Positions 9,307-14,385 of a stretch of 64,000 nt of DNA are shown here, one piece after another. The notes beneath the pieces are model-generated. The model searched no databases. It was given only the letters and a program-made list of their open reading frames with translations, and had not been told where the DNA came from. How positions within the stretch are numbered: position 1 is the first letter of the stretch; each line of letters starts with the position of its first letter. Source of the stretch: Escherichia coli (GTDB taxonomy: Bacteria; Pseudomonadota; Gammaproteobacteria; Enterobacterales; Enterobacteriaceae); NCBI RefSeq assembly GCF_016026235.1, contig NZ_CP065613.1; one strand, 5' to 3'. A program made the translations under genes and the position numbers.

Positions 9307-9594
9307 ATGCCATCCAGACTGTATAAACAGTTCATCCGTCATCTCGGTGAATCTGAATACATACGAATCCGCATATGGGAAGTGGAGCCTGCTGTATTGG
9401 GTAGCCAGCACAACTACAAATACAGCATGGCTTATGTCGTTGATGGCATGTGTGTGATGCGTTACGACAACGAACGGGGTAAAGGCGATCACAAACACAT
9501 TGGTAGTCAGGAAGTCAGCACCAGCTTTGTCACCATTGAACAACTGCTCGCTGATTTTCTGGCTGACGTTGAATCCATCCGCAGAGGTATCTGA
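9307..9594 (+). CDS. Hypothetical 95-aa protein, first gene of inverted two-gene cassette
   Basis: ORF on plus strand embedded in minus-strand phage operon; stop TGA 9592-9594 one nt before start of next gene. Confidence 0.5.
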   Translation: MPSRLYKQFIRHLGESEYIRIRIWEVEPAVLGSQHNYKYSMAYVVDGMCVMRYDNERGKGDHKHIGSQEVSTSFVTIEQLLADFLADVESIRRGI

Positions 9595-9595
9595 C

Positions 9596-9955
9596 ATGAG
9601 AACCGTAACAATCCGAATCGAGTCAATGGATAATTTCACGGCTGATGTGCTGTCTGCGTTCCAGGAAGCAGCTACCGGAGCAAAAGCAACCAGAGAAAAC
9701 GTTATTTCATTTCCTGACTGGCAAATGATGCATAAGGTACTGACACCAAAACGCATGGACATTCTGATGGCAATGACTGGTGCCGGAGAAATGTCCATCC
9801 GAAAAATTGCAGCCCTGGTTGGACGTGATGTAAAAAGCGTGCATACTGACGTGACCGCACTCATCAGCAACGGTTTACTGGAAAAAAGCGAGCGCGGAAC
9901 GTCATTCCCGTATGACGACATCCACTTTGATTTTACGCTGGGCAAGGCGGCGTAA
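9596..9955 (+). CDS. Putative HTH DNA-binding protein (119 aa), second gene of inverted cassette
   Basis: ATG at 9596; helix-turn-helix-like segment MSIRKIAALVGRDVKSVHTDVTALISNGLL. Confidence 0.5.
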   Translation: MRTVTIRIESMDNFTADVLSAFQEAATGAKATRENVISFPDWQMMHKVLTPKRMDILMAMTGAGEMSIRKIAALVGRDVKSVHTDVTALISNGLLEKSERGTSFPYDDIHFDFTLGKAA

Positions 9956-10999: not shown

Positions 11000-11293
11000 A
11001 TGAAAGTTCAGGCCGTTGGTTTATTCTGGTTTCGCGATGCGATTCAGTATCATGAGCTCAAAAATATTTTTACTGATGCTGATGTGCTCTCCGACAGTTA
11101 CACCGAGTGGAAACACGACGCTGAAAAATTGATTAAGCGTGTCGAAAGAAGCGGGCAACGAGTTATTAAAGTTGAAGCGGATACAGCCGAGTTCATCACC
11201 TGGTGTACAAGCGAAGGCATTGGACTCAATGCCGAAGGTAGAATGCAGTTCGCATCCTTTAAGGCTTACCAACAACTTCTCAGCGAACGCTAA
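11000..11293 (+). CDS. Hypothetical prophage protein (97 aa)
   Basis: ATG at 11000 preceded by AAAGGAGG at optimal spacing; protein-like composition; opposite strand to surrounding operon. Confidence 0.45.
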   Translation: MKVQAVGLFWFRDAIQYHELKNIFTDADVLSDSYTEWKHDAEKLIKRVERSGQRVIKVEADTAEFITWCTSEGIGLNAEGRMQFASFKAYQQLLSER

Positions 11294-11363
11294 TGTGATT
11301 GGGGCAATCGAAATTGTTGCCCCATCGTATTTAATAGTTATTTTTTCGCTCATATCACCACCA

Positions 11364-11573
11364 TCACTTCTCATCCTCTGTGTGCGCTAAGCTTGGATGT
11401 GTATATGGAATGTTCGGATCCAGATGGCAGAGAATGGCAACATCCTCCGGAACGCCCCGCGTTTTCCACTTTCCAACTCCCTGACTACCACGAGGCTTTC
11501 CTTTCTTTGGGAACCTGCGGCCAATAGCGGCATTGGTTTTAAATTGAGTTTTTAATATTTCATAAAGGGTCAT
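11364..11573 (-). CDS. Putative Cro-like early regulator (divergent from repressor gene)
   Basis: 69-aa basic ORF transcribed divergently from the cI-like gene across a 110-bp repeat-containing spacer. Confidence 0.4.
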   Translation of the reverse strand: MTLYEILKTQFKTNAAIGRRFPKKGKPRGSQGVGKWKTRGVPEDVAILCHLDPNIPYTHPSLAHTEDEK

Positions 11574-11684
11574 TCTTTAGCCTCACACCGGATACTCTGT
11601 TATCCAAGAATGTTAAACATGAGAATCCAAAGTATCAAGATATTCTGTTACTTTAGTATCAGCAGCCATGAAAGGAGAAGAAAA
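11574..11684. promoter_or_regulatory. Divergent promoter/operator region of prophage immunity switch
   Basis: Spacer between cro-like and cI-like genes containing repeated TCCAAGAAT / TCCAAAGTAT and AGTATCA motifs and AT-rich -10-like hexamers. Confidence 0.4.
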
Positions 11685-12341
11685 ATGAAATCTTTAGGTG
11701 AACGGCTAATCAACGCACGACAAAAAGCTGGGTTAACGCAAGATGCGTTGGCTAAAAAAGCAGGGGTCACCAGAGTTGCAATCAGTAAAGCCGAGCAAGG
11801 CCTTACAAAAAGTTTCAACGGTGACACCCTTTTTAAAGTCGCAGCTGCACTGCAGTGTTCACCGCAGTGGCTTCAGAACGGAGATGAGAAAGGTAAGCAT
11901 TGGGAAAATAATGTTAAGAGTTGCCCCCAGAGGGACACAGCACACTCTTACCCTGTAATTAACTGGGTTCAGGCAGGATTATTCACAACTGCAGGTGATG
12001 ACTACAACATGTATGATCAGGATAACTGGAGGCATTCTGTAAAATACGCTGGTGAGAGGGGGTTCTGGCTGGAAGTGCACGGAGACTCAATGACTTCGCC
12101 TATAGGAATAACATTTCCTGAAGGAATGTCGATCCTTGTCAACCCAGATAAAGAAGTTTTTTCAGGGTGTTACGTCATTGCCAGAAAAAAATCCACCAAT
12201 GAAGCAACATTCAAAAAATATATTTCTGAAATGGGAAAGGCGTTTCTAAAGCCCCTTAATCCACAATACCCAATCATAGAAATGGACAATGATTGCGAAA
12301 TAGTAGGCGTTGTGGTTGATGCCAGATGGGATATTTTCTGA
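11685..12341 (+). CDS. Prophage repressor, cI/LexA-like (N-terminal HTH_XRE + C-terminal S24 peptidase domain)
   Basis: MKSLGERLINARQKAGLTQDALAKKAGVTRVAISKAEQG (HTH) and ...HGDSMTSP...ATFKKY... (Ser/Lys autocleavage dyad); SD AAAGGAG upstream. Confidence 0.8.
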   Translation: MKSLGERLINARQKAGLTQDALAKKAGVTRVAISKAEQGLTKSFNGDTLFKVAAALQCSPQWLQNGDEKGKHWENNVKSCPQRDTAHSYPVINWVQAGLFTTAGDDYNMYDQDNWRHSVKYAGERGFWLEVHGDSMTSPIGITFPEGMSILVNPDKEVFSGCYVIARKKSTNEATFKKYISEMGKAFLKPLNPQYPIIEMDNDCEIVGVVVDARWDIF

Positions 12342-12443
12342 CCAGATACAAAATACAAAAAGAAACCTAAGTATCAAAAACACTTGCAACACCTTGATAC
12401 CTTAGTTACCATAAAACAAAGTTCGTAACTGAGGTATCATCTC

Positions 12444-12893
12444 ATGATCAATAAAGCTACAACTCTTGACTGTCTCGAAGAACTGAAAAACCTCGGCAGC
12501 CTCATTACACTAATAGCAAAAGCAACGGCAGATGCTACGCTCTCTAGCGATATAGAGTCATGCGCAGGACTGGCATGGGATATGACAAATAGCATATCCA
12601 GAAAGCTATCGTCAGCAATGCTTTTACAGAACAAAAATTCTGCAATCAACAACCGCCTTCGCACCCAACGCGAAGCCTGCGGCTTAACAACAGCCGAACT
12701 CGCCAGGCTGCTCGATCTCGATGAAGAAATTATCATCCAGTGGGAGAGCGGAGAGTATGAACCAACTATCAGTATGCTTATCCCACTGGCAAATATTCTT
12801 GGCTGCGATCCGATGTGGCTGTTAACTGGTGAGGTTACTCCTCCGGAGCAACCAAAAAGTGAGGAGCAGCAACACCATGACGCATCTCAATAA
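12444..12893 (+). CDS. Second HTH_XRE-domain regulator (149 aa)
   Basis: C-terminal segment INNRLRTQREACGLTTAELARLLDLDEEIIIQWESGEYEPTISMLIPLANILGCDPMWLLTGE is a typical XRE helix-turn-helix. Confidence 0.6.
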   Translation: MINKATTLDCLEELKNLGSLITLIAKATADATLSSDIESCAGLAWDMTNSISRKLSSAMLLQNKNSAINNRLRTQREACGLTTAELARLLDLDEEIIIQWESGEYEPTISMLIPLANILGCDPMWLLTGEVTPPEQPKSEEQQHHDASQ

Positions 12894-13075: not shown

Positions 13076-13288
13076 ATGAAAAAGTTCGAAAACATAACTG
13101 TTCTCCATGTTGATGACTTTGATTATACAAACCCGGAACTTCTCCCGGAGGTTGTAAAGGCAATAGATGTTGCCGATATAGTGATTAGAGGAAAGAGAAT
13201 TGTCAAAAACAGGCTCGCATGTACTTCAGGAGCAATGACAGAAACAACCTCACAGCAAGATGATTGGAGCCTGATTCATTTGCGGTAA
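13076..13288 (+). CDS. Hypothetical prophage protein (70 aa)
   Basis: ORF in prophage left operon. Confidence 0.35.
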   Translation: MKKFENITVLHVDDFDYTNPELLPEVVKAIDVADIVIRGKRIVKNRLACTSGAMTETTSQQDDWSLIHLR

Positions 13289-13620
13289 ATGTTTATCATT
13301 TATTGCATGCAACACAGGTGTTACATACGTCCAGTAATAACGAAACAAAAACACTTGGCAGTGAAATTCTGAATTTTGCATGTGAATATGCAAAAACCGC
13401 TGTTGAAAAAGAATTAGCGCAATAACAACAAATATGCCCTGAACGTTTATTGCGGTTTTATCGCCGGGGATTGTTACAACCTTAATCCACAGGAGGCTTT
13501 ATTATGACTTTTATAAAGAATATGGCATCACACAAGACCGCCAGCCTTATTGCACAATACGGTGAAAATTACATGCATATTGCCTGCTTATTTCTGCGTA
13601 AAGCATACGGGAAATAACAA

Positions 13621-13980: not shown

Positions 13981-14195
13981 TGGCTAATTTATCCCCTGTA
14001 TCTGTTGTGCACGAAAAAGTGCAGATCGTTATGACAATTGAAAATGGCCAGGTAACAGATGTCTGCAAAGTCCGCGATGGAGAGCTGATTGCCAGCATGG
14101 ATACATTCATACGGCTGGCAGAAAGAGCGGGGTATCAGATAACAGCACCTGCTCAGGAGGAAACCAGTGACATTAACAGCAACACGAATTCCTGA
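13980..14195 (+). CDS. Hypothetical prophage protein (71 aa)
   Basis: ORF coupled to upstream gene. Confidence 0.4.
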   Translation: MANLSPVSVVHEKVQIVMTIENGQVTDVCKVRDGELIASMDTFIRLAERAGYQITAPAQEETSDINSNTNS

Positions 14196-14385
14196 GTGGG
14201 TCCACCAGCAGGCGTTGCTGGTCCTGCGGCGGTACAGATGCCGACGTATATTCCCGCATCGGATACAGCGCAACGGATATCTCAGTCTGAAGGTTAACCG
14301 TCGCTGGCGGCTGTTATCGAAAGACGACGGCCGGAACTGGGAAGTAATGAGTCATGAACGTTATTCGGGGGAAATAAAGAAATGA
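14167..14385 (+). CDS. Hypothetical basic prophage protein (72 aa)
   Basis: ORF overlapping previous gene end by 29 nt. Confidence 0.35.
   Translation: MTLTATRIPEWVHQQALLVLRRYRCRRIFPHRIQRNGYLSLKVNRRWRLLSKDDGRNWEVMSHERYSGEIKK

Follow-up and report, generated by a model that had tools for sequence, protein, structure and literature searches.

Two presumed regulators stand in tandem in the early region of an Escherichia coli prophage, and the question they raise is whether the second acts independently of the first. The prophage lies in a 64,000-nucleotide stretch of contig NZ_CP065613.1 (RefSeq assembly GCF_016026235.1), hereafter the window, where a cI repressor gene is followed by a gene for a second helix-turn-helix (HTH) protein, here called HTH2. 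The initial annotation proposed that this second protein could control accessory genes of the left operon independently of SOS induction. Our analysis points the other way: three cI-type operators lie in the spacer that carries the HTH2 promoter and leader, the HTH2 gene is most likely repressed by cI and coupled to SOS, and the region is probably the on/off (lysis-lysogeny) switch of a phiP27-type lambda-like prophage. The features on which this reading is built are as follows.

11364..11573, minus strand: cro-position gene, 69 amino acids, basic (net charge +5, isoelectric point 9.7), divergent from cI and 111 bp away from it
11574..11684: O_R-like spacer, 111 bp, from the cro-position gene to cI
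11591..11604: predicted operator R1, GATACTCTGTTATC, one mismatch to GATAC-N4-GTATC; around the predicted rightward transcription start
11610..11638, minus strand: P_R-like promoter of the cro-position gene, TTGATA (11638-11633), 17 nucleotides, TAACAT (11615-11610); 9/12
11623..11636: predicted operator R2, GAATCCAAAGTATC; overlaps the -35 element of the rightward promoter
11647..11660: predicted operator R3, GTTACTTTAGTATC; nearest to cI, 38 nucleotides before its ATG
11685..12341, plus strand: cI repressor, 218 amino acids; HTH_3 N-domain, lambda-type S24 C-domain
12342..12443: O_L/P_L-like spacer, 102 bp, from cI to HTH2
12362..12375: predicted operator L1, GAAACCTAAGTATC; immediately 5' of the -35 element of the leftward promoter
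12384..12412, plus strand: candidate leftward early promoter, TTGCAA, 17 nucleotides, TACCAT; read from sequence
12396..12409: predicted operator L2, GATACCTTAGTTAC; inside the -35/-10 spacer of the leftward promoter
12425..12438: predicted operator L3, GTAACTGAGGTATC; over the leader and the GAGG Shine-Dalgarno sequence of HTH2
12444..12893, plus strand: HTH2 gene, 149 amino acids, same orientation as cI

The first of the two genes had been described as encoding an autocleavable repressor of the cI/LexA kind, and this description is upheld. Its HTH_3 domain (residues 10-63, E = 1e-14, 54.7 bits for a cut-off of 23) matches 434 Cro and P22 c2 at E = 1e-9, with GVTRVAISKAEQG as recognition helix at residues 27-39. 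The Peptidase_S24 domain (residues 90-211, E = 1e-22) is homologous to the C-domain of lambda cI (3bdn, E = 4e-33), so that cooperative binding is plausible. The motifs VQAG (A97-G98), GDSM (S135) and TFKK (K177/K178) align with VQAG, GNSM and TFKK of lambda, which hold the cleavage site and the Ser/Lys dyad, and self-cleavage is predicted for the window protein. Judged by these residues, it is a self-cleavable repressor of the lambda cI/LexA type, predicted to respond to SOS. The ratio of nonsynonymous to synonymous substitution (dN/dS) is 0.05 relative to the orthologues of Shiga toxin (Stx) phages. A longer protein of 243 amino acids, starting at 11610, was rejected: it would cross the operators, and the RefSeq start at 11685 is preceded by a Shine-Dalgarno sequence, AGGAG, at 11674-11678.

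In the spacer between cI and the cro-position gene, described as 110 bp long, two repeated motifs had been taken for possible operator half-sites, AGTATCA and TCCAA(G/A). The spacer measures 111 bp. AGTATCA occurs twice in it; the motif represents the half that is conserved in an imperfect palindrome of 14 bp, GATAC-N4-GTATC, so this part of the proposal stands; TCCAA(G/A), present in two copies (11603 and 11626, one of them inside an operator), is not kept in relatives and was set aside. Allowing up to two mismatches, 23 sites of the palindrome were found in the 64-kb window, six of which fall within the 213 bp of the two spacers flanking cI (Poisson P of about 4e-11). The repeats thus extend to a second cluster of three in the cI-HTH2 spacer, which had been overlooked. 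A stricter 15-nucleotide pattern matches at the operator places and nowhere else in the window, although this pattern was built from the operator sites themselves and the result is partly circular. Inspection of the two spacers by eye revealed no LexA box. As a separate observation, TCCAAR is markedly under-represented in the whole window (30 occurrences, about 79 being expected from dinucleotide-preserving shuffles), for which we have no explanation.

The operators are conserved in position. All six positions are kept in phage phiP27 and in two Stx phages about 84% identical in the region, and in one of these, an Stx2 phage (L003), the R1 position is occupied by a perfect palindrome, GATACTTAAGTATC. 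Relatives of the same immunity type (type A of the six cI types discussed below) were also found in metagenomes; their cI proteins are 66 to 74% identical, the recognition helix is unchanged, and GTATC half-sites are kept in both spacers. In distant type-A relatives the gene downstream of cI lacks any HTH, and operators are still present in both spacers. Since they persist where the downstream gene has no HTH, the sites would belong to cI (and probably to Cro), not to HTH2, and we infer, with good though incomplete confidence, that cI binds all six. Two other immunity types carry a palindrome of their own in both spacers, ATCAA-N7-TTGAT in type B and ATCGG-N4-CCGAT in type C; in types C4 to C6, type-specific palindromes occupy the corresponding place in the left spacer.

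The predicted sites lie where they could act on outward promoters, both of which are predictions made at the level of the consensus. On the right, R2 overlaps the promoter and R1 is at its start region; the counterpart of this promoter in L003 is TTGATA-17-TAATAT. On the left, TTG-N20-TAnnnT recurs in every type-A relative, the elements being TTGCCA-17-TACCAT in L003 (9/12), TTGCCC/TACGCT in L094 and TTGCGT/TACCTT in L095. In types B (L006) and C (L009), an intrinsic terminator stands after cI, and between it and the HTH2 homologue lies a 10/12 promoter. From this pattern of terminator, promoter and own palindrome in the other types, we regard the spacer after cI as the equivalent of O_L/P_L, and HTH2 as the predicted first gene of a leftward early operon. 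Because three operators lie at the HTH2 promoter and the other types show the terminator/promoter arrangement, HTH2 would be under cI control and hence coupled to SOS; the proposal of an SOS-independent regulator is not borne out. A promoter-like match on the minus strand of the left spacer (12377-12350) was rejected as a by-product of TTGATAC in L1.

The mechanism that we propose is as follows. In the lysogen, cI would bind three sites on each side of its own gene and shut the rightward and the leftward early promoters; RecA-stimulated self-cleavage would then remove it. HTH2, as the first gene of the leftward operon, would be silent in the lysogen and switched on after the loss of cI, and its product may act early in lytic growth through protein contacts (self-association or a partner), and not as an operator-binding repressor. 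We hold the lambda-like switch itself to be rather likely, and the part assigned to HTH2 less so.

Several points weigh against this account. The leftward promoter of the window scores only 8/12 relative to the consensus. No terminator was found between cI and HTH2 in the window, and transcripts from the cI promoter that run on into the HTH2 gene could yield some of its product in the lysogen. No convincing candidate for a maintenance promoter of cI could be placed. Cro may occupy the same six sites, instead of or alongside cI. Finally, the features of HTH2 that speak against DNA binding (its net negative charge and a D-E-E sequence, see below) do not exclude it.

What kind of protein HTH2 is can be described in three parts, to which a second copy of the hairpin in a neighbouring gene is added.

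12444..12647, plus strand: N-terminal part of HTH2 (residues 1-68), a helical hairpin of type 'N1' (helices 7-27 and 31-78) that goes with the immunity type
12648..12833, plus strand: HTH part of HTH2 (residues 69-130), with an XRE/HTH_3 fold, a net charge of -7 and DEEIIIQWESG as recognition helix
12834..12893, plus strand: acidic disordered tail of HTH2, with TAA at 12891-12893
13264..13425, plus strand: hairpin family, second copy (phrog_4587 type); C-terminal half of the phrog_5451 gene at 13076-13425, which carries a frameshift

The initial annotation was right in seeing a second XRE-family HTH protein, in tandem and in the same orientation as cI (HTH_3 at residues 72-126, E = 3e-11); the unrelated N-terminal domain comprises about 70 residues, not 80, and matches no family. 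The AlphaFold model (alignment of 32 sequences) has a mean predicted local distance difference test (pLDDT) score of 77 and a predicted template modelling score of 0.44; it shows the helical hairpin leading into a five-helix XRE fold, then a disordered tail, and residues 11-60 reach pLDDT values of 84 to 93 (means of 10-residue blocks). Searches of PDB and BFVD with the model returned HTH domains only and no match for the hairpin. The best Foldseek match of the HTH is the DNA-binding domain of P22 c2 (template modelling score 0.89, root-mean-square deviation 0.9 A, 32% identity). Relative to Stx-phage orthologues, the hairpin has a dN/dS of 0.2 and the HTH one of 0.08 (with a dS of 1.3 to 1.7 in the latter), values that point to purifying selection on both parts.

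Does this HTH bind an operator? The domain has a net charge of -7 and an isoelectric point of 4.2, whereas the DNA-binding domains of cI range from +3 to +6 across all six types (a value of +12 in our charge table, outside this range, comes from an over-extended P27 open reading frame). In our own alignment, the D-E-E at the start of its recognition helix stands in place of S-N-V in P22 c2, residues which we take to contact bases. The HTH is at least 93% identical across the six immunity types, while their operators differ, and no motif common to the promoter regions of the HTH2 homologues of the six types was found beyond shuffled controls. Given this charge, the D-E-E, the lack of a common promoter site and the near-identity of the HTH across types, the role of HTH2 as a conventional operator-binding protein is doubtful.

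Database labels did not help to define it. HTH2 matches phrog_4836 (E = 1e-40), called 'CII-like regulator', a label carried over from deposited records. An activator like lambda CII was rejected: the gene lies left of cI and not right of cro, and there was no CII match in Pfam or NCBIfam. DicA (NCBIfam NF007257) was likewise rejected, HTH2 scoring 48.8 bits for a cut-off of 101. For HTH2 and its neighbours, searches for named families in Pfam, NCBIfam, PADLOC and PHROGs gave generic HTH matches below cut-off or entries of 'unknown function' only.

The size of HTH2 has its own history. Most homologues are 215 to 247 amino acids long and have a second HTH. The window protein consists of the first HTH up to G-C-D-P, followed by the end of the second HTH and the tail, as these occur in the long forms P0038 and P0039. 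The second HTH was deleted in frame at the C-D-P junction (12804-12812). The tandem pair has thus collapsed to a single hybrid HTH at repeated G/H-C-D-P codons (window 12801-12830, alignments A2 and A6). In L10 of phiP27 and in other short forms, the tails match other long forms than that of the window, and from these different tails we conclude that the collapse took place at least three separate times. Short, single-HTH forms are found in 51 of the 53 type-A loci. In addition, the TAA that ends the window gene is CAA in most alleles, so that HTH2 is reduced from 167 to 149 amino acids by the loss of 18 tail residues, a length shared by two of the 53 type-A loci. As a side observation, two Salmonella homologues (P0037 and P0040) have an N1 hairpin and an extra HTH-like segment within the first HTH, P0037 having up to three HTH units.

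The variable part of the protein is the hairpin. The conserved HTH served to retrieve 90 loci, and in these each of six cI types occurs with its own one of six hairpin types, in strict 1:1 pairing. The immunity module spans most of cro up to the junction of hairpin and HTH. This pairing must be read with caution: near-identical prophages account for many of the 90 loci, which are thus not independent samples; the association could be mere physical linkage; and the hairpin types are paralogues, more than one of which some phages carry as distinct genes.

When the hairpin alone served as query in an exhaustive search of 1.8e9 proteins, five cluster representatives emerged, none of them annotated. 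Two of the five are free-standing proteins of 67 to 72 amino acids, both encoded directly after a type-A cI and its operators, with three or four more small acidic paralogues downstream. Tandem arrays of this sort, with 3 to 5 acidic helical-hairpin paralogues of about 63 to 72 amino acids after cI/O_L, were observed at L093 (3501-4313) and L095 (3501-4690). The PHROG families phrog_4587, phrog_6882, phrog_8959 and the N-terminal part of phrog_4739, all of unknown function, are members, and the hairpin belongs to an uncharacterised family of small early proteins. When the E. coli hairpin types were compared with the array, N1 corresponded to the first gene, N2, N3 and N6 to phrog_4587, and another type to phrog_6882. 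In the HTH2 proteins of E. coli, different array members form the N-terminal domains as fused copies. Since the types map to different members, reading the 1:1 pairing as a functional lock is weakened; the adjacency of N1 and type-A cI is still conserved over deep divergence. The second copy in the window belongs to a phrog_5451 homologue which is intact in L009 (4648-5013, 121 amino acids) and occupies two overlapping frames here (13076-13288 and 13264-13425), likely as the result of a frameshift.

Other explanations of HTH2 were weighed against the one we prefer. The protein could be a second DNA-binding repressor, made in the lysogen and controlling the accessory genes of the left operon independently of cI and SOS. 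Its well-formed HTH_3 domain, the close structural match to P22 c2 and the weak DicA-like matches in NCBIfam are in keeping with such a role, and co-transcription with cI would be possible in the window, where no terminator separates the two genes. Yet the promoter and leader of HTH2 carry three operators of the cI type, a terminator follows cI in other immunity types, the HTH is acidic with D-E-E at what are presumably the base-contact positions of P22 c2, its promoter holds no site conserved across types, and the DicA score reaches 49 bits of the 101 needed. A repressor of this kind seems to us very unlikely. There is equally little chance that HTH2 is a decaying, functionless remnant. The in-frame loss of the second HTH, the change from CAA to TAA at the cost of 18 tail codons, and the frameshift in the neighbouring phrog_5451 gene would fit decay; against it, single-HTH forms dominate type A and have arisen at least three times, dN/dS relative to the long-form orthologues is 0.08 to 0.2, and phiP27 itself carries a short form.

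Two further possibilities concern the hairpin more than the HTH. If it were an immunity-specific modulator of the switch, fused here and free elsewhere, it might bind its cognate cI or Cro and lock the lytic state. The strict pairing with cI over six types, the presence of N1 beside a type-A cI even at 38% identity and without an HTH, the exact coincidence of the hairpin/HTH junction with an edge of the immunity module, and the acidity of the proteins would all suit such a modulator. There are precedents for it: Coi of phage P1, a small protein made from a C1-repressed promoter adjoining c1, binds C1 1:1 (PMC8546580), and RexA of lambda, encoded beside cI, biases the switch to lysis (PMC11077077). 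The likeness of both to HTH2 is in gene context, each gene adjoining a repressor gene, and not in sequence or fold. On the other side, the partner repressors would come from different families (S24 types, a 128-residue protein with an HTH only, and a 130-residue HTH protein), so that one fold would face many partners; the hairpin types coexist as paralogues in one operon; and physical linkage alone could account for the pairing. We therefore regard this modulator as unlikely, and put no higher the broader proposal that the hairpin founds a family of immunity-type-specific modulators, fused in the window to an acidic XRE scaffold that does not bind DNA. Were it true, a fall in cI would be needed for the hairpin to be produced, its binding to cognate cI or Cro would render the lytic decision irreversible, and a Coi/RexA-like layer would exist in many Stx-converting and phiP27-like prophages. 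The hairpins may, alternatively, be cargo of the early-left operon for host takeover or anti-defence, with the first of the hairpins fused to the conserved HTH, an autoregulator of the Aca kind. Tandem arrays of 3 to 5 very divergent small acidic paralogues after a strong early promoter would be expected of cargo, and a conserved HTH joined to hypervariable partners resembles acr-aca loci. But the conserved HTH is acidic and has no conserved promoter site, and none of the proteins matches a named family; we give this explanation a slim chance.

On the other side of cI, the gene at the cro position is preceded by a GAGG Shine-Dalgarno sequence 8 nucleotides 5' of its ATG. The label cro-like that it had been given has position, size and charge to go by; searches for a fold gave no match in Pfam (E up to 10) or in a profile search of PDB, and an AlphaFold 2 model with a pLDDT of 48 and three short helices. 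It matches phrog_4749, of unknown function, and orthologues 65 to 70% identical adjoin type-A cI in distant relatives. An hhalign comparison with YdaS-type cro genes matched the C-terminal tail alone. This tail, PSLAHTED(E/D/G)K (window 11364-11393), is common to otherwise unrelated cro genes of three immunity types, YdaS-type included, and we therefore place the right recombination boundary of the immunity module inside the cro-position gene.

What the region has in common with lambda is an S24 repressor with a homologous C-domain, in which the cleavage site and Ser/Lys dyad align, a divergent gene for a small basic protein, and imperfect palindromes overlapping outward promoters, three to either side of cI. 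Two of its O_R sites are 24 bp apart from centre to centre, as are O_R1 and O_R2 of lambda. In contrast with lambda, the operators are 14 bp long with GATAC half-sites, and the DNA-binding domain of cI is of the 434/P22 type (HTH_3). There is no rexAB; O_L begins 20 bp after the cI stop, about 0.77 kb from O_R, and the first leftward gene is a hairpin-HTH chimera and not N. The lysogen transcribes rexA together with cI, whereas a separate, repressed promoter appears to serve HTH2. The domains of P22 c2, 434 repressor and Cro are the best matches of the HTH2 HTH in both structure and sequence, with the motif ...IxQWExxExEP in common. Apart from its hairpin-HTH neighbour, which is mildly unusual, the region is a textbook lambdoid switch.

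The closest known relative is phiP27, an Stx2e phage that has been isolated and whose complete genome is deposited (NC_003356 / AJ298298). Over 2.1 kb surrounding the immunity region, nucleotide identity to its genes L12-L11-L10 is about 95%, and gene order and the six operator positions are the same. L10 is a separate deletion derivative of 138 amino acids with a tail like that of the long form P0059, while the window allele has a PPEQPKSEEQ tail shortened by a nonsense codon. The repressor itself was already known, L11 having been annotated 'putative lambda repressor' since deposition; a literature search, which did not cover the 2002 phiP27 genome paper, found no publication on L10 or the operators.

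The same 2.1 kb is 95 to 97.5% identical to prophages of complete E. coli genomes. At least part of it is matched in 341 of 5,426 such genomes, and at least 80% of it in 153. Stx1a and Stx2a phages have cro, cI and most of the next gene in common with the window at about 84% identity, and phiP27-type early regions are present in Stx1, Stx2a and Stx2e-converting phages. In Stx-converting phages prophage induction drives toxin release; the six predicted sites and two promoters offer concrete reagents for induction studies, and cI probably controls the neighbouring gene. This gene, for the hairpin-HTH protein, and its paralogues are conserved among the early genes, and if they tune the switch they would affect the ease with which these phages are induced.

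In the closest genome, the prophage is inserted beside yecE/DUF72, and a Q-family antiterminator is present with no annotated N. An Rfam scan of 10 to 15 kb gave no RNA family, such as a put-like or nut-like element, and no cII or cIII homologue was recognised in the window prophage. Between the cro-position gene and the Rha gene, an open reading frame for 97 amino acids on the plus strand (11000-11324; phrog_4753, unknown function) opposes the early-right operon and ends in a terminator-like hairpin (11300-11324); it is moron-like in appearance. Two more plus-strand genes are embedded against this operon at 9307-9955, annotated in close relatives as a TumE-family toxin-antitoxin protein and an HVO_A0114-family DNA-binding protein. 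In the left operon, a small open reading frame at 14167-14385 bears, in relatives, the annotation of a ParE-family toxin-like protein. ARAGORN predicted one tRNA in the entire window, a tRNA-Met on the minus strand at 2055-2130; at the corresponding late-region position of the closest genome stand four other tRNA genes, for Gly, Thr, Arg and Ile.

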